A DNA stretch of 43,538 nucleotides from a virus (IMGVR_UViG_2687453364_000004); one strand, 5' to 3'; counted from the first letter of the stretch, positions 33,986-43,538 are shown. The notes: generated by a model from the letters alone, not told the origin. Program-made: numbers and translations.

Positions 33986-34911
33986 AGATCCACCCCGTAA
34001 ATCCAGTCTGTGTTTGTCAGGTCGAGTTTTGGTTTGCTAGCTGTCACGCCTGCCTGTTGCTTGTTACGGTTGATTTCGAGTTGGGTCCACTTGTCGCGGA
34101 GTTTGGCCGGACTTAGCACGTTACCGGACCAGAAGTTGTCCTGGCATGCCCAGCGGAACAGCACGCACATGTCGCGGTGGTTACGTCCGTCACGTTCACG
34201 CATCAGGCGGATATCGTTAGCCCACCCTGCAAAATTCGGTTTTCTGGCTGATGGCGCGATGGTCTTCACCATGTCAAACATCCACTCTGCGGCGGTCAGG
34301 TCTTCTGCTGTCCCCCACTTGCTGCCGCTCTGAATTGCAGCATCCGGTTTCACCACAGGAAGATCGTTTTCTGGTTGGTCAGAGGATTCGCCAGAATTCT
34401 CGGACGAAAAAGGTTTTATATTGTCTTTTGTTAGTTTGTCTTTTGTGTTTACCTGATTCGGGTAAACGCCTTTACCTGATTTGGGTAAACTTTTTTTACC
34501 TGATTCAGGTAAATTTACCTCTTTCAGGTAAACTTTATTTTTCTTACCTGATTCGGGTAATGTTGACCATTCACTGACCACATTATTAATGCCGGTATTC
34601 CGCCCGCTCTGAATAAAAATCCCACGCTTTACCAGAACACTTTTTGCAGCAGAACACTTGTGCGGCAATATCCCGGTTAATTCGGAAAGTTGCTCGTTGC
34701 TAACCCAATCCAGTTTTTTATTAAAGCCATATGTTTTGCGCATGACAGCCAGAAAGACCAGAAGCTGGTGCTGTGTTAATCCGGCCAGCATCACAGCTTC
34801 CAGCAACTCATTTGCAATGCGCGTATAACCATCATCGAGATCTGCCACGCGCGGCTCCTTTTGTGCCGCATCCGGCACTGGAAAATTGAATATCTCAGCA
34901 GTGTTTGCCAT
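33982..34911 (-). CDS. O: replication initiator O (chimeric: non-lambda N-terminal DNA-binding domain, lambda-identical C-terminal P-interaction domain)
   Basis: the C-terminal ~125 aa (SSENSGESSDQPENDL...TNTDWIYGVDL) match lambda O; the N-terminal half diverges; start placed at the internal ATG with GGAGG Shine-Dalgarno (MANTAEIFNFP...). Confidence 0.85.
   Translation of the reverse strand: MANTAEIFNFPVPDAAQKEPRVADLDDGYTRIANELLEAVMLAGLTQHQLLVFLAVMRKTYGFNKKLDWVSNEQLSELTGILPHKCSAAKSVLVKRGIFIQSGRNTGINNVVSEWSTLPESGKKNKVYLKEVNLPESGKKSLPKSGKGVYPNQVNTKDKLTKDNIKPFSSENSGESSDQPENDLPVVKPDAAIQSGSKWGTAEDLTAAEWMFDMVKTIAPSARKPNFAGWANDIRLMRERDGRNHRDMCVLFRWACQDNFWSGNVLSPAKLRDKWTQLEINRNKQQAGVTASKPKLDLTNTDWIYGVDL
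34449..34560. repeat. ori: origin iterons (about five copies of a ~18-bp TACCTGATTCGGGTAAAC-like repeat) with flanking AT-rich DNA, inside O
   Basis: TTACCTGATTCGGGTAAAC, TTACCTGATTTGGGTAAAC, TTACCTGATTCAGGTAAAT, TTACCTCTTTCAGGTAAAC and TTACCTGATTCGGGTAA read directly; located mid-O as orilambda is, but the sequence differs from lambda iterons; coordinates +/-2. Confidence 0.75.
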
Positions 34912-34997
34912 AATTCCTCCCGCAATGAGTGTGTTACGATTTGCACCTGAAAGTCGGTTCTGTTCCAGCAGACCGGCTTTCGCCATTTCTGAACCTG

Positions 34998-35537
34998 TCA
35001 TATCGCCCCCAGCATGGTAGTAACCATCGCCATCAATGGACCAGCCAGATCTGGGTCCACACGAAACATCGACACAATACCTTCACTAATTTCCTTCAGT
35101 TTCTGGTGGCGTGGTGCGTTGAGAATGACAGCCTGTTTTGCCTCACTGAGTTCCTTTTCCATTTCAGCCAACCTAGCCATGAAGCTATCCTGCTCAACCA
35201 GGTAACCGCGATATTCCAGCGGTAGTACCGCCAGAATTGCCGGGGTCAGTTCACGCACGTTATTTCGGTATTTTTCAGAATCGAATTTGTTATCGAGGAA
35301 GCGGAACAGCTTCTGGCGTGCACGGCTGACATCATCAGGGAAATCGATGGTGCCGCCGCCCTGCTCCAGATACTCATTCACAATGAGTGTGGCAACGACA
35401 TCCTGATTATCTACAGCCGACCAGGCGCGGACGGCATCACGGATTTTTTCGTGGCCTGGCACCTGTTTTGTTTGAGAACGATTTATCACCGCAGTCGGGC
35501 TAAATCCGCTAGTCTGTTGGTATGTAAGTGGTTGCAT
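34998..35537 (-). CDS. YdaT-family protein (CII functional analogue of Rac/CP-933P-type immunity regions)
   Basis: 179 aa in the cII position between cro and O; segments EYLEQGGG and LTPAILAVLPLEYR resemble E. coli YdaT from memory; AAAGGAG Shine-Dalgarno. Confidence 0.6.
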   Translation of the reverse strand: MQPLTYQQTSGFSPTAVINRSQTKQVPGHEKIRDAVRAWSAVDNQDVVATLIVNEYLEQGGGTIDFPDDVSRARQKLFRFLDNKFDSEKYRNNVRELTPAILAVLPLEYRGYLVEQDSFMARLAEMEKELSEAKQAVILNAPRHQKLKEISEGIVSMFRVDPDLAGPLMAMVTTMLGAI

Positions 35538-35580
35538 AATTGACTCCTTTAGTTTGAATTGACTGTTAAGTTGATTGCTT

Positions 35581-35594
35581 ATTGTTAAAGAGCG
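35581..35594 (-). promoter_or_regulatory. boxA element (nutR-like) just downstream of cro
   Basis: minus strand CGCTCTTTAACAAT matches the boxA consensus (G)CTCTTTAACAA; lies ~13 nt after the cro stop, the position of lambda nutR; no convincing boxB hairpin seen. Confidence 0.6.
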
Positions 35595-35606
35595 TGAAAT
35601 GGAAAT

Positions 35607-35837
35607 TTAAGCTGCGTTCTTTTCGGTGTGTGGAAACAACTTCGGAAGATCCGGGCGAATCTGGTATGCCTTCACTACTCCACCAGTAGCCGTAACAATG
35701 CTGCCGACATGTTCAGGGGATACCTTTGCTTTGTTGTGAAGCCACTTATAGACGGCCTGCTGTGAAACTTCGCAAGCAGCGCCCAGTTTCTTTTGTGAAC
35801 CAACGATATTGATCGCTGTTTTGATAGCTGGGTTCAT
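35607..35837 (-). CDS. Cro/YdaS-like HTH regulator
   Basis: 76 aa, divergent from cI across the operator region; GGAGG Shine-Dalgarno; helix-turn-helix-like segment QKKLGAACEVSQQAVYKWL. Confidence 0.7.
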   Translation of the reverse strand: MNPAIKTAINIVGSQKKLGAACEVSQQAVYKWLHNKAKVSPEHVGSIVTATGGVVKAYQIRPDLPKLFPHTEKNAA

Positions 35838-35941
35838 AACAACCTCCGTGGTTAATTTGAATCAAGATTAAAACTATGGTTGTTTTTAGTCAACAACCAT
35901 TTTCGTTTGATGGAATAAAACCTTGGTTGTACATTTGGACT
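35838..35941. promoter_or_regulatory. oR/pR/pRM divergent promoter-operator region
   Basis: inverted repeat ATGGTTGTT-7 nt-AACAACCAT (~35876-35900) plus further GGTTGT/ACAACC half-sites; candidate pR (minus strand TTGACT-17-TAATCT) and pRM (plus strand TTGATG-17-TACATT ending 7 nt before the cI ATG, implying a leaderless cI mRNA). Confidence 0.55.
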
Positions 35942-36631
35942 ATGAAAACAACACTCTCAGAAAGACTTAAAGAAGCCAGATTAGCGCGAGGCCTTACACA
36001 AAAGGCGCTTGGGGATTTGGTCGGGGTTAGCCAGGCTGCTATTCAGAAAATCGAAACAGGGAAAGCTAATCAAACAACTAAAATCGTGGAGATCGCGAAC
36101 GCTTTGGGTGTGCGCGCAGAATGGTTATCTTCTGGCGTTGGAAATATGTCAGACAGTACAGTGCAACCAATACAATCAACTGTCAGCCATTCCAAATACT
36201 TCAAGATTGACGTTCTTGATATAGAAGTCAGTGCTGGGCCGGGAGTCATCAACCGTGAGTTTGTAGAAGTTCTACGCTCGGTTGAGTACTCGTTTGACGA
36301 TGCTCGTCACATGTTCGATGGTAGGAAGGCGGAAAATATCCGCATCATTAACGTGCGTGGTGACAGCATGTCAGGAACGATCGAACCAGGTGATCTGCTG
36401 TTCGTTGATATCACAGTTAAATCTTTCGACGGTGATGGTATCTATGCGTTTCTGTACGACGACACAGCCCATGTAAAGCGCCTGCAAATGATGAAGGATA
36501 AGCTGCTGGTCATCTCTGATAACAAAAGCTACTCACCGTGGGACCCGATCGAGAAAGACGAGATGAACCGGGTGTTCATCTTCGGTAAGGTTATTGGGAG
36601 CATGCCGCAGACATATAGGAAGCATGGGTAG
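35942..36631 (+). CDS. CI-like repressor (N-terminal HTH, C-terminal LexA/S24-type autocleavage domain)
   Basis: MKTTLSERLKEARLARGLTQKALGDLVGVSQAAIQKIETGK... (HTH); C-terminal RGDSMSGTIEPGDLLFVD...HVKRL resembles the S24 Ser/Lys dyad region; internal ATG chosen. Confidence 0.85.
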   Translation: MKTTLSERLKEARLARGLTQKALGDLVGVSQAAIQKIETGKANQTTKIVEIANALGVRAEWLSSGVGNMSDSTVQPIQSTVSHSKYFKIDVLDIEVSAGPGVINREFVEVLRSVEYSFDDARHMFDGRKAENIRIINVRGDSMSGTIEPGDLLFVDITVKSFDGDGIYAFLYDDTAHVKRLQMMKDKLLVISDNKSYSPWDPIEKDEMNRVFIFGKVIGSMPQTYRKHG

Positions 36632-36752
36632 TACCAATTAAAAATTATCAACTGGGCATTGTGCTCATTCAGTAAAGAACTAATTCCTATCTTTGCTCTA
36701 GGTAGTAATATTAAGCCACCGCAATAATATCTTTACCTAACGGCGTAAGAAT

Positions 36753-36780
36753 CCCGGTCACCGTGCCGGGTTTTCTTTTG
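36753..36780 (+). terminator. rho-independent terminator downstream of cI
   Basis: CCCGG-tcaccgtg-CCGGG followed by TTTTCTTTT; coordinates +/-2. Confidence 0.5.
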
Positions 36781-36896
36781 CCCTCCCCTCATCACACACA
36801 CCGTTAAAAAAACCACCATAACCTCGCTTCAGTTATCGCTATGCGATTCAAGTCACAAAATAAATCCATCCTAAATACAACCAGTTATATCTAAAA

Positions 36897-36950
36897 CAAC
36901 CAATAAAACAACTTTTGTTGTTGACGATAAAACAACTATAGTTTTAAATA
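36897..36950 (+). promoter_or_regulatory. oL/pL candidate: early-left promoter with GTTGTT/AACAAC operator half-sites
   Basis: AACAAC-TTTT-GTTGTT and GTTGTT-8 nt-AACAAC repeats overlapping TTGACG-17 nt-TTAAAT; the same half-site as in oR. Confidence 0.5.
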
Positions 36951-37142
36951 AGTTCATCGCAACAACACAACGATACGGCAACTACCTGATTCACCGTTGC
37001 GATGACCGCTTAGATCCGCAGTTTGAATTTCAGCAGGCTTCGGGGAGTGCGAGGGGTGAAACGGACGCGTGAACGTCGGTGTGACCAGCTGAAATTAACT
37101 CAACATTTCATACCTTAGTCGCTTCAACGAGGCGGCTTAGTT

Positions 37143-37433
37143 ATGACAACCGGCGGCCATCCACCGCCTGAATACGCGCAGAAGTCTCTATATGTTCAGC
37201 AGCCCAGCTTACGGGCAGGAGTTTTTATGGTTCATCAACATTACGGAACGCAGACCGTTAATCGCGGTGCGGTCATGCCAGGAATGCTGGTCAAACACAA
37301 AGATGGTACCTGGACTGCATCAGCTAATTTACGCGGACGGCTTTATCTGCATCGCGGCATCGAGCGCACTTATACCCGTGATTTGCTCGTGGAAGTTTTT
37401 CTCGACGGACGCGGCAACGGCCTGAATCACTAA
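37143..37433 (+). CDS. hypothetical early-left protein (occupies the lambda N-to-kil position)
   Basis: 96-aa ORF with a GAGG ~11 nt upstream; no family recognised; an overlapping 77-aa alternative-frame ORF (37192-37425) cannot be excluded. Confidence 0.3.
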
Positions 37434-41807: not shown

Positions 41808-42030
41808 CCCTAACACCTGGTACGTCGACCACCACGGCACTCCCTGCAAAATCCTGCGTTCTACCCACAACAAAGTTCACTACATCCGAAAAGGCAGAAC
41901 ATGTATCGCCAGCATGTTCCGCTTTAATCATGACTTTGAACCTGTGAATAAAGCTGATGCAGATCGGATAGCAGAAGAGATCGAAACGGCAGAACACATT
42001 AAGAAGTTACGTGACATGCGCAGGAAATAG
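41791..42030 (+). CDS. hypothetical protein
   Basis: 79-aa ORF overlapping the end of the ASCH gene by 17 nt; basic C-terminus; no family recognised. Confidence 0.4.
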   Translation: MFRVIDPNTWYVDHHGTPCKILRSTHNKVHYIRKGRTCIASMFRFNHDFEPVNKADADRIAEEIETAEHIKKLRDMRRK

Positions 42031-42169
42031 AAAAATTGATAAATTCAATACTGCATTTCTCAGCATTAAATTTATCTCTATGACCAGTCAAGAGATGTAC
42101 CTGCCATGAGCTTAATATCATGTCAGATATATCGGTCACAAACTCCCTCAGCAGCTAAGAGGAGGACAA

Positions 42170-42406
42170 ATGTCTCGACTAATCACTTTACAGGACTGGG
42201 CTAAAGAAGAATTTGGGGACTTAGCACCAAGTGAGCGAGTTCTGAAAAAATACGCGCAAGGGAAAATGATGGCCCCACCCGCTATAAAAGTTGGTCGCTA
42301 CTGGATGATTGACCGAAATTCCCGTTTTGTAGGAACGCTTGCAGAACCGCAACTCCCAATAAACGCAAACCCAAAACTCCAAAGGATAATCGCTGATGGC
42401 TGCTAG
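42170..42406 (+). CDS. xis: excisionase Xis
   Basis: 78 aa, MSRLITLQDWAKEEFG...PPAIKVGRYWM resembles the lambda Xis winged-helix N-terminus (MYLTLQEW...PPPVKDGREYLF); strong AAGAGGAGG Shine-Dalgarno; overlaps int by 11 nt. Confidence 0.85.
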   Translation: MSRLITLQDWAKEEFGDLAPSERVLKKYAQGKMMAPPAIKVGRYWMIDRNSRFVGTLAEPQLPINANPKLQRIIADGC

Positions 42407-43538
42407 ACCCCGATCTCACAAAATCTCTATACCCAATTTATATTGCAAATTAGATAAGCGAACCGGAAAGGTATATTGGCAATACAAACATCCACTATCC
42501 GGTCGTTTTCATAGCTTAGGAACTGATGAGAATGAAGCAAAACAAGTTGCTACTGAAGCAAATACCATTATTGCTGAACAACGTACCAGACAAATATTAA
42601 GCGTCAATGAGCGTCTGGAAAGAATGAAAGGCAGGCGCTCAGACATTACGGTGACAGAATGGCTTGATAAATATATTTCTATCCAAGAGGACAGGCTGCA
42701 ACATAATGAACTAAGACCCAACTCCTATCGGCAAAAAGGCAAACCCATTCGTCTTTTCCGTGAGCATTGTGGAATGCAACACCTCAAGGATATTACCGCA
42801 CTTGATATTGCCGAAATAATTGATGCTGTAAAGGCTGAAGGTCATAACAGGATGGCGCAAGTCGTGAGAATGGTGTTGATCGACGTCTTCAAAGAAGCAC
42901 AACACGCAGGACATGTTCCGCCAGGATTTAACCCAGCGCAGGCAACAAAACAACCGCGAAATCGAGTAAACCGCCAAAGATTGTCACTGCCCGAATGGCA
43001 GGCAATATTTGACAGCGTAAGCAGACGGCAGCCCTATTTAAAATGCGGCATGCTACTTGCTCTTGTTACTGGACAACGTTTAGGCGATATCTGCAATTTG
43101 AAATTCTCTGATATATGGGACGACATGTTGCACATTACTCAGGAAAAAACCGGTTCAAAACTTGCTATTCCGCTTAACCTGAAATGCGATGCTCTGAATA
43201 TTACCCTTCGTGAAGTTATATCTCAGTGCAGGGATGCTGTTGTTAGTAAATATCTGGTCCATTACCGTCACACTACCTCTCAAGCAAACAGAGGAGACCA
43301 GGTTTCTGCAAATACTCTGACAACGGCTTTTAAAAAGGCCCGGGAAAAATGTGGCATAAAATGGGAGCAAGGAACTGCGCCCACATTTCATGAGCAGCGA
43401 TCTCTGTCAGAACGGTTATATCGGGAACAGGGTCTGGATACGCAAAAGTTGTTAGGCCATAAATCCAGAAAAATGACCGACCGATACAATGATGATCGTG
43501 GTAAAGACTGGATTATCGTAGATATCAAAACAGCATAG
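42396..43538 (+). CDS. int: lambda-family tyrosine integrase
   Basis: 380 aa; the N-terminus (RPRSHKISIPNLYCKLDKRTGKVYWQYKHPLSGRFHSLGTD) parallels lambda Int; catalytic region with TGQRLGDIC, HEQRSLSERLY and LLGHKS...Y as in lambda Int (~45% identity estimated by eye); the stop is the last codon of the window. Confidence 0.9.
   Translation: MAARPRSHKISIPNLYCKLDKRTGKVYWQYKHPLSGRFHSLGTDENEAKQVATEANTIIAEQRTRQILSVNERLERMKGRRSDITVTEWLDKYISIQEDRLQHNELRPNSYRQKGKPIRLFREHCGMQHLKDITALDIAEIIDAVKAEGHNRMAQVVRMVLIDVFKEAQHAGHVPPGFNPAQATKQPRNRVNRQRLSLPEWQAIFDSVSRRQPYLKCGMLLALVTGQRLGDICNLKFSDIWDDMLHITQEKTGSKLAIPLNLKCDALNITLREVISQCRDAVVSKYLVHYRHTTSQANRGDQVSANTLTTAFKKAREKCGIKWEQGTAPTFHEQRSLSERLYREQGLDTQKLLGHKSRKMTDRYNDDRGKDWIIVDIKTA

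Follow-up and report, generated by a model that had tools for sequence, protein, structure and literature searches.

In phage phi80, cII is defined genetically by its clear-plaque, lysogeny-establishment phenotype, and the operators of phage 434 are 14 base pairs (bp) long, with the sequence ACAA-N6-TTGT. In prophages such as CP-933P and Rac, the corresponding positions are occupied by YdaS and YdaT, which serve as analogues of Cro and CII and do not constitute a toxin–antitoxin pair (PMC5917428, PMC8630535, PMC9986795, PMC11879457). YdaT of CP-933P, a homologue of phi80 CII, acts as an activator of a pRE-like promoter (PMC8630535). YdaT proteins are tetrameric helix-turn-helix (HTH) DNA binders, and Rac YdaT activates the pRE equivalent (PMC9986795, PMC11879457). 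CP-933P YdaT has no effect on the CI analogue's own promoters, and Rac YdaT also binds the cI-cro intergenic region (PMC11879457). The window analysed here, a 43,538-nucleotide stretch of viral DNA (IMGVR_UViG_2687453364_000004), carries at positions 34998-36950 (1953 bp) a repressor gene, a divergent cro-like gene and a YdaT-type gene, together with the operators oR and oL. This segment is very likely the lysis/lysogeny (immunity) region of a phi80/HK639-type lambdoid prophage, and its operators are best read as 14-bp pseudo-palindromes of the 434 type.

The gene between cro and O (34998-35537, minus strand) encodes a protein of 179 residues, which alignment shows to be an orthologue of phi80 cII belonging to the YdaT family. 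It matches YdaT_toxin (PF06254) with 103.4 bits (cut-off 21, E = 9e-30) and PHROG 163, 'CII-like transcriptional activator', at 6e-67. Its identity to phi80 cII amounts to 65.6% over 180 residues, spanning the full length, with 67% to mEp237 CII and 51% to the cII products of HK639 and HK225. In phmmer comparisons with solved YdaT structures, whose fold combines a POU-like HTH domain with a long helix, E-values of 7e-4 (8BT1) and 1.5e-3 (3C4R) are obtained and residues 28-106/125 are covered, while YdaT of the Rac-like phage Rac-SA53 is 37.5% identical over about half its length. The YdaT-family protein that the original prediction had placed in the CII slot is thus recovered by profile search.

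The gene cro (35607-35837, minus strand) is the first gene of the pR operon, diverges from cI and has the Shine-Dalgarno sequence GGAGG. Its 76-residue HTH product is YdaS-like, as had also been predicted, scoring 62.2 bits against YdaS_toxin (PF15943; cut-off 30, E = 4e-17). The closest solved structures are the Cro proteins 3BD1 and 5W8Y, and the closest relative is Cro of HK639 with 62% identity. The CI repressor (35942-36631, plus strand, 229 residues) combines a 434-like HTH N-terminal domain with an S24 autopeptidase domain. Pfam detects HTH_3 at 6.5e-13 and Peptidase_S24 (PF00717) at 1.5e-18 in the open reading frame (ORF) 35876/35942-36631, in line with the LexA-type CI anticipated from the sequence. 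The best solved-structure match of the N-terminal domain is the 434 repressor (E = 4.5e-9, approximately 45% identity over 64 residues), and CI also matches UmuD' (1e-4). Cleavage site and catalytic residues were assigned by motif: Ala98-Gly99 (SA98-G99P) is the candidate cleavage site, with Ser142 in GDSM and Lys179 in VKRL, and these residues would fit RecA-stimulated autocleavage. RefSeq places the start at 35942, which is adopted here; the ATG of the longest ORF, at 35876, falls within oR. One phage record uses the ORF from 35876, but its 22 additional residues are missing from every homologue. The closest CI is that of HK639, with 44% identity.

At 100% identity, the region 34998-36950 recurs in many complete E. 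coli chromosomes; the isolated phage PhiR34_1 carries it at 99.9% identity, with the genes already annotated as cI, Cro and cII. The core 35607-36190, comprising cro, oR and the CI N-terminal domain, is found in 1524 of 5426 complete E. coli genomes, in 1330 of them at 99% identity or more. The module is therefore already known: it is an ordinary, annotated and extremely common representative of the classical phi80-type immunity region. Up to four copies of the core occur per E. coli genome, which means that several homo-immune prophages or remnants share one host genome. Judged from these comparisons, the association of an S24-type cI with a YdaT-type cII is an old and widespread pairing and no special mosaic, since the same arrangement is present in HK639, HK225 and 4A7, and the cII type also in mEp237.

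The limits of the immunity-specific part can be drawn by blastn breakpoints against the hetero-immune phage 4A7. A core cassette (35539-36074) that extends from the cro-cII spacer through cro and oR into cI, to about codon 44, has no DNA homology to 4A7, while its flanks are 90-96% identical, and an oL block (36862-36957) is swapped as a unit between flanks of 94-100% identity. Common to both phages are cII (96.6%), CI from residue ~85 onwards (100%), the terminator after cI and the pL leader; they differ in the CI N-terminal domain, cro, oR and the oL block. The pair represents a natural immunity swap, in which the cassette of CI N-terminal domain, oR and cro and the oL block are exchanged as a unit. 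In the P22-like Salmonella phage ST160 (locus L092, 1777-3184), CI, Cro and operators of the 4A7 type are found together with P22 c1, a lambda-type CII. The CII type is thus exchanged independently of CI and Cro, with YdaT-type and lambda-type genes able to stand beside the same cassette, which is ordinary lambdoid mosaicism.

The operators of this immunity type are best described as 14-bp pseudo-palindromes, ACAAC-N4-GTTGT, with OR centres 23 and 24 bp apart. OR1 (AAAACTATGGTTGT, 35870-35883) is centred at -65.5 from the cI ATG, in the spacer of pR and touching its -10 hexamer. OR2 (ACAACCATTTTCGT, 35893-35906; centre -42.5) abuts the -35 hexamers of both pR and pRM, which is an activator position, and OR3 (AAAACCTTGGTTGT, 35917-35930; centre -18.5) lies within the pRM spacer. 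In oL, OL2 (ACAACTTTTGTTGT, 36908-36921) has perfect arms, overlaps the pL -35 by 1 bp and is invariant in homo-immune loci, while OL1 (ACAACTATAGTTTT, 36932-36945) is located in the pL spacer, 24 bp from OL2. The homo-immune set used for these comparisons consists of 80 IMG/VR loci with identical CI, plus two phage loci. The half-sites of OR1 are invariant across the 80 loci, and in the set as a whole only 1 of 50 half-site positions is polymorphic, while 36 of the remaining 130 oR and oL positions vary (Fisher p = 2.7e-5). Substitutions in the operator regions sit in the N4 centres and between the sites.

The repeat GTTGTT/AACAAC, which the original prediction had noticed in both oR and oL, is real and far above chance. 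AACAAC occurs 39 times on the two strands of the window (shuffled sequences, 25.6 +/- 5.2), and 10 of these copies fall in 35838-35952 and 36895-36966. With at most one mismatch, ACAACNNNNGTTGT has six matches in 43.5 kb, five of them in oR or oL, compared with a mean of 1.3 in shuffles. The conclusion that the immunity specificity is unlike that of lambda stands as well. Two further copies of AACAAC lie outside the 14-bp sites: the one at 36895 is polymorphic in several haplotypes of homo-immune prophages, and the one at 36961 is not immunity-specific, because it belongs to the pL leader that is conserved in hetero-immune 4A7. Centred at -96.5, over the Shine-Dalgarno sequence of cro, is a fourth site resembling the operators (ACAACCTCCGTGGT, 35839-35852, one mismatch); its counterpart at -96.5 in the Providencia phage PSTCR7lys (locus L093, 1898-1911) is AAAACCTCCGTTGT. 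Constraint on the fourth site is doubtful, because its right half varies in two singleton haplotypes.

Related phages have sites of the same architecture. HK639 contains three perfect ATAAC-N4-GTTAT sites at -18.5, -42.5 and -67.5 from the cI ATG and three more in oL, and 4A7 and ST160 have ATACG-N4-CGTAT at -19.5. In PSTCR7lys, sites of the ACAAC-N4-GTTGT type are present at -19.5, -43.5 and -66.5; the OR2 orthologue at -43.5 is ACAACTATATTCGT, and the counterpart of OR3 at -19.5 is the perfect ACAACTGAAGTTGT. OR1 has an orthologous site in both PSTCR7lys and HK639. PSTCR7lys also has the OL2/OL1 pair at the 24-bp distance, with ACAACTTTAGTTGT as the OL2 orthologue and an OL1 identical to that of the window. 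The CI of PSTCR7lys is 50% identical overall, and its recognition helix, VSQAAIQKIETG, is the same. Compared with the 434 repressor, the recognition helix reads QAAIQK instead of QQSIEQ: the Gln corresponding to 434 Gln28 is kept, while the position of 434 Gln29 is occupied by Ala in this CI and by Pro in HK639 CI. The Ala versus Pro difference may determine whether C (this phage) or T (HK639) is found at operator position 2.

The promoters pR, pL and pRM were placed by register with PSTCR7lys and HK639, and remain predictions from sequence. The putative pR (35865-35893, minus strand) consists of a -35 TTGACT (35893-35888), a 17-bp spacer and a -10 TAATCT (35870-35865). For pL (36921-36949, plus strand), the -35 TTGACG (36921-36926) and the -10 TTAAAT (36944-36949) are likewise separated by 17 bp, with a start expected at about 36956. 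Both registers are as in PSTCR7lys, which has TTGATT-17-TATTAT at pR and TTGACA-17-TTAAAT at pL. The predicted pRM (35907-35942, plus strand) comprises a -35 TTGATG (35907-35912), a 17-bp spacer and a -10 TACATT (35930-35935), and after 6 further nucleotides comes the A of the cI start codon. Lambda pRM is arranged in the same way; in HK639, TATATT is likewise separated from the ATG by 6 nucleotides, and in PSTCR7lys and 4A7 the distance is ~7 nucleotides. The only purine-rich triplet before the cI ATG, GGA at 35937-35939, reads GAT in 18 of the 80 homo-immune loci, and a conserved Shine-Dalgarno sequence for cI is therefore lacking. Of the earlier proposal of a leaderless cI, the promoter geometry and the non-conserved ribosome-binding sequence are in favour, and a leaderless cI mRNA from pRM is plausible. 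An intrinsic terminator downstream of cI (CCCGGTCACCGTGCCGGG followed by TTTTCTTTTG; 36753-36780, plus strand) is conserved in 4A7.

If the switch works as in lambda and 434, pR would be blocked by CI dimers bound to OR1 and OR2, and CI at OR2, beside the pRM -35, would activate pRM; the pRM transcript would begin with the A of the cI start codon or an adjacent base and hence be leaderless. OR3 would serve to shut off pRM at high CI levels and would be the first site of Cro action, while OL1 and OL2 would block pL. Prophage induction would follow when RecA stimulates CI to cleave itself at Ala-Gly. Expressed from pR after infection, the YdaT-type CII would bind DNA, probably as a tetramer, as suggested by the YdaT proteins of CP-933P and Rac and by phi80 genetics. 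It would then activate a pRE-like promoter directed antisense through cro into cI, and repression would be set up.

Several points weigh against this picture. The mechanistic steps are all drawn by analogy. The right half of OR2 is weak (TTCGT) and a candidate OL3 could not be assigned. A simple promoter scanner called none of pR, pL and pRM, because their -10 hexamers are weak. The roles of YdaT vary from phage to phage (PMC11879457). Furthermore, a TTGATT-N4-9-AATCAA box with up to two mismatches was not found near the cII start (35440-35612); the nearest YdaT-like box, GTGGTT-N6-AATCAA with two mismatches, is located in the cro leader (35848-35865), and a by-eye search gave no convincing -10/-35 pair for pRE. 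The pRE candidates TTGATT(35571)-18-TGAAAT and CATAAT at 35535-35540 are unconvincing, and a TTGTTA taken as the pRE -10 is really the complement of a boxA. The dyad GATTTA-N15-TAAATC (35480-35506, in the 5' coding part of cII) is conserved in phi80, HK639 and mEp237 only to the extent that the protein sequence explains. A search without prior motif, modelled on pRE, pI and paQ, revealed no 5-N-5 dyads common to the cII-start region, the region upstream of int (41950-42420) and the Q gene. The recognition helix of this YdaT (RARQKLFRF) differs from that of CP-933P (RNTQKIFRW) and a different box is therefore to be expected, so that the missing CP-933P-type box is no argument against CII function.

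The operator itself could be understood differently, because the original prediction pointed to a palindrome GTTGTT-N7/8-AACAAC, which a repressor dimer might bind once each in oR and oL (with GGTTGTT as outer left and AACAACC as outer right arm), in addition to single half-sites. GTTGTT-N6-9-AACAAC has only two matches in the window, at 35879-35897 (N7) and 36917-36936 (N8), where 0.02 are expected, and in oR the match forms a perfect 7-N7-7 inverted repeat that overlaps the pR -35. The palindrome is hence present in both operators, but its bases are explained as the right half of OR1 plus the left half of OR2, and as the right half of OL2 plus the left half of OL1. It would then be the junction of neighbouring 14-bp operators and not a single dimer site, and its N7/N8 difference follows from centre-to-centre spacings of 23 and 24 bp. 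Within the 14-bp sites, the spacing is constant at N4, whereas the two palindrome copies differ in spacing and contain single-base length variants of a T-run. The palindrome also leaves the conserved AAAAC at 35870 and 35917 and GTTTT at 36941 unpredicted, and it calls for constraint at 36895-36900, which is polymorphic, and at 36961, which is conserved even in hetero-immune 4A7. Perfect 14-bp N4 palindromes adjoin at the same distances from the cI ATG in the phages encoding the HK639, 4A7 and PSTCR7lys repressors, and the HTH of CI is like that of 434, whose operators are 14 bp long. Binding of a dimer to the longer palindrome is thus quite unlikely.

Other readings concern the genes rather than the operators. 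The Pfam names YdaS_toxin and YdaT_toxin, and the RefSeq label 'toxin YdaT domain-containing protein' for the 179-residue product, would fit a toxin–antitoxin pair carried as cargo beside the repressor. This has next to no probability, because the published experiments contradict it (PMC5917428, PMC8630535, PMC9986795, PMC11879457), the two genes occupy the cro and cII slots with oR on one side and the O/P genes on the other, and the 179-residue protein is 66% identical to the annotated cII of phi80. The proposal of a hybrid, in which a lambda-type cI/oR/oL was recently and unusually joined to a Rac/CP-933P-type ydaS-ydaT, draws on the mosaic nature of lambdoid immunity regions, where the cassette and the cII type do reassort (4A7, ST160). 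It is very unlikely: the cII is distant from CP-933P YdaT (E = 7e-4) and from the Rac type (37.5%), yet 66% identical to cII of phi80, which has the same layout. An S24 cI with a YdaT-type cII also occurs in phi80, HK639, HK225, 4A7 and CobraSix, and mEp237 shows the same cII type, counted for cII only and not for the repressor domains. The window's Cro and CI are co-related to the HK639 pair, and HK639 possesses a YdaT-type cII too, which places the trio in an old lineage; the presence of the core at 99% identity or more in 1330 complete genomes also speaks against a recent event. Less remote, but still unlikely, is that repression or modulation, at oR/pR or at host promoters, is the main role of the YdaT-type protein, and not activation of pRE. 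Rac YdaT does bind the racR-ydaS (cI-cro) intergenic region and host promoters, including rcsA (PMC11879457), and the failure to find a box and a pRE near the cII start, together with the CP-933P-like box in the cro leader, points in the same direction. This box, however, is weak, with five such matches in the window by the same criterion, and its AATCAA half is variable among homo-immune loci. Moreover, the phi80 homologue bears the name cII, and the YdaT proteins of CP-933P and Rac both activate pRE-like promoters (PMC8630535, PMC11879457). A phi80-type immunity region with 14-bp operators and a YdaT-type CII therefore remains the preferred reading.

The pR transcript carries a perfect rrn-type boxA (GCTCTTTAACAA, 35582-35593, minus strand) between cro and cII, which is the sole match in the window at up to two mismatches. 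No boxB hairpin follows it, and the spacer is without stable structure. PSTCR7lys has, in the same place, a boxA plus a GCACA...TGTGC hairpin, and boxB therefore seems to be deleted from nutR here. In phi80, HK639, HK225, CobraSix and 4A7, a conserved GCCGCC-TAA-(C)GGCGGC hairpin contains the cro stop codon in its loop, 30 bp before cII; the cro of the window is without this stop-codon hairpin and is followed instead by a 69-bp spacer with the boxA. The pL leader (36956-37226, ~270 nucleotides), which leads straight into kil, contains no N gene, no nutL boxA and no cIII. A covariance model built from HK022 putL, HK022 putR and HK639 putL finds only its training sequences and no put RNA in the window, and local alignment of the pL leader with HK022 and HK639 remains at noise level. 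Rfam returns nothing real for the window, only a spurious sub-threshold match to Listeria rliD on the ori iterons. With a z-score of 0.18, the leader folds no more stably than shuffled sequences; its 23 haplotypes vary too little for covariation analysis, and it is conserved in hetero-immune 4A7. It is a tentative and rather doubtful idea that the early operons run without a dedicated phage antiterminator, the lone boxA recruiting host NusB/E-NusA-NusG-SuhB against Rho on the pR transcript, as in rRNA operons. If true, this would be N-independent, boxA-only delayed-early expression in a lambdoid phage.

Upstream of kil, a block at 37095-37175 comprising CATACC, a hairpin and TTATGACAACCGGCGGCCATCCACCGCC is common to phi80 (locus L003, 1237-1330) and HK639 (locus L004, 252-360). 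Its hairpin is paired by different sequences, GTCGCTTC/GAGGCGGC, GAGTCA/TGGCTC and GGCAGA/TCTGCC. The intrinsic terminator tL1A of phi80 and its HK639 equivalent are located directly upstream of this block and are absent in the window and in 4A7. An Arg-rich leader ORF of 31 residues (37023-37118, containing RGVKRTRERRCDQLK) was considered as a mini-N and judged to be non-coding or an annotation artefact. It has no Shine-Dalgarno sequence, and its stop codon at 37116 is TAG in the window and the major haplotype but CAG in others. The ORF is in frame with a long Kil ORF (37143-37433) and open in 4A7 and PhiR47_2, where a 'Kil' of 128 residues is annotated, while the RefSeq start of kil is at 37227.

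On the other side of cII, the O-like replication initiator gene (33982-34911, minus strand) matches Pfam Phage_rep_O at 1.1e-33 and PHROG 277 from residue 31 on. Translation probably begins at the ATG at 34911, which follows GGAGGAATT, rather than at the longest-ORF ATG at 35001, and a conserved GGGAGGAATTATGGCAAACAC aligns with the O starts of phi80, HK225 and mEp237. Five 18-bp iterons similar to TACCTGATTCGGGTAAAC, each an inverted repeat, are located at about 34440-34560 inside the O gene and presumably form the replication origin. The 86-bp cII-O spacer (34912-34997) could encode an antisense oop-like RNA on the plus strand: it aligns with the annotated spacers for the M3 (oop-homologue) RNA of phi80 and the M3-like RNA of HK639, and on this strand a hairpin (about 34952-34976) precedes TTTCG. 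Downstream of the 179-residue gene come genes of the O and P type, and kil, gam, bet and exo lie beyond oL.

A cargo insertion point is present at 36673-36676, between cI and the terminator/oL, in the position of rexAB in lambda, and is empty in the window. 4A7 and PhiR47_2 carry there a 1.4-kb two-gene cassette (locus L005, 4147-5522; locus L006, 4180-5555), annotated in PhiR47_2 as the GevT/GevA toxin–antitoxin system. Among the IMG/VR loci with identical CI in which both landmarks were found, the cI-oL interval has the short form in 35 and 0.75-1.6 kb of additional DNA in about 26. Elsewhere in the window, the nin region between P and Q contains a gene for an inverse autotransporter of the intimin/invasin-like type (28769-33034, minus strand; 1421 residues) with three near-identical internal repeats of ~100 residues each, adjoined on the opposite strand by an esterase gene (27689-28732, plus strand). 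The autotransporter is a large virulence-type cargo within the delayed-early operon.

The practical gain lies in correct annotation: what is listed as a 'toxin YdaT domain-containing protein' and an 'S24 family peptidase' is the CII and CI of one immunity type, and the mislabelled pair concerns ~28% of complete E. coli genomes, ST131 strains included. With the operator (ACAAC-N4-GTTGT), the arrangement of the promoters and the cassette limits known, homo-immunity among prophages can be predicted, induction or curing tools can be designed, and the cargo insertions that are frequent between cI and oL can be read. The general picture of phage switches is unchanged, as the arrangement is that of phi80 and YdaT has already been published as an analogue of CII.

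Compared with phi80, gene order and strands are the same: an S24-type cI diverges from a small HTH Cro (gp30/gene 30), and a cII of 65.6% identity is followed by a spacer that aligns with the M3/oop RNA region of phi80 and by the O-like and P-like genes (15 and 14 in phi80). Tripartite oR and oL, annotated as CI sites, are likewise present in phi80. In contrast, the phi80 CI is only 24% identical and its Cro barely alignable, its operators are 19 bp long and unrelated in sequence, N, nutL and the tL1 terminators found downstream of its pL are missing from the window, and gene 40A lies between cI and oL, where the window has only the terminator. HK639 is the nearest relative of the CI-Cro pair with a characterised genome (CI 44%, about 230 residues in both; Cro 62%; cII 51%). 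It shares 14-bp operators of the X-N4-X' form at -18.5 and -42.5 and the order -10, 6 nucleotides, ATG, but uses the half-site ATAAC instead of ACAAC and has a put-like antiterminator RNA and cargo genes between cI and pL, the put element being undetectable in the window. The operators also fit the 14-bp ACAA-N6-TTGT of 434, in agreement with the similarity of the CI N-terminal domains, although the fifth base is C here and the half-sites are extended to ACAAC. Phage 434 further differs in its own type of Cro, as opposed to the YdaS/lambda-Cro-like protein of the window, and in its lambda-type CII.

CP-933P (PaaR2-YdaS-YdaT) and Rac (RacR-YdaS-YdaT) likewise fill the cro slot with a YdaS-family protein and the cII slot with one of the YdaT family. 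Their repressors PaaR2 and RacR, however, are without an S24 domain and not SOS-cleavable, their YdaT is only distantly related to the one described here (phmmer E = 7e-4 to 8BT1), and the box TTGATT/ATGATT-N6-AATCAA is not found at the cII start of the window. Both are defective prophages, whereas the present module is found in plaque-forming phages such as PhiR34_1 and 4A7. With lambda, the region has in common a divergent pR/pRM pair with three operators between them, spaced by approximately 23-24 bp and with the central one near -42 of pRM, a cI that starts 6 nucleotides after the -10 in leaderless geometry, and an oL pair over pL. It differs from lambda in having 14-bp instead of 17-bp operators, another HTH type and a YdaT-type protein in place of lambda CII, and cIII, N and rexAB are absent from this region.

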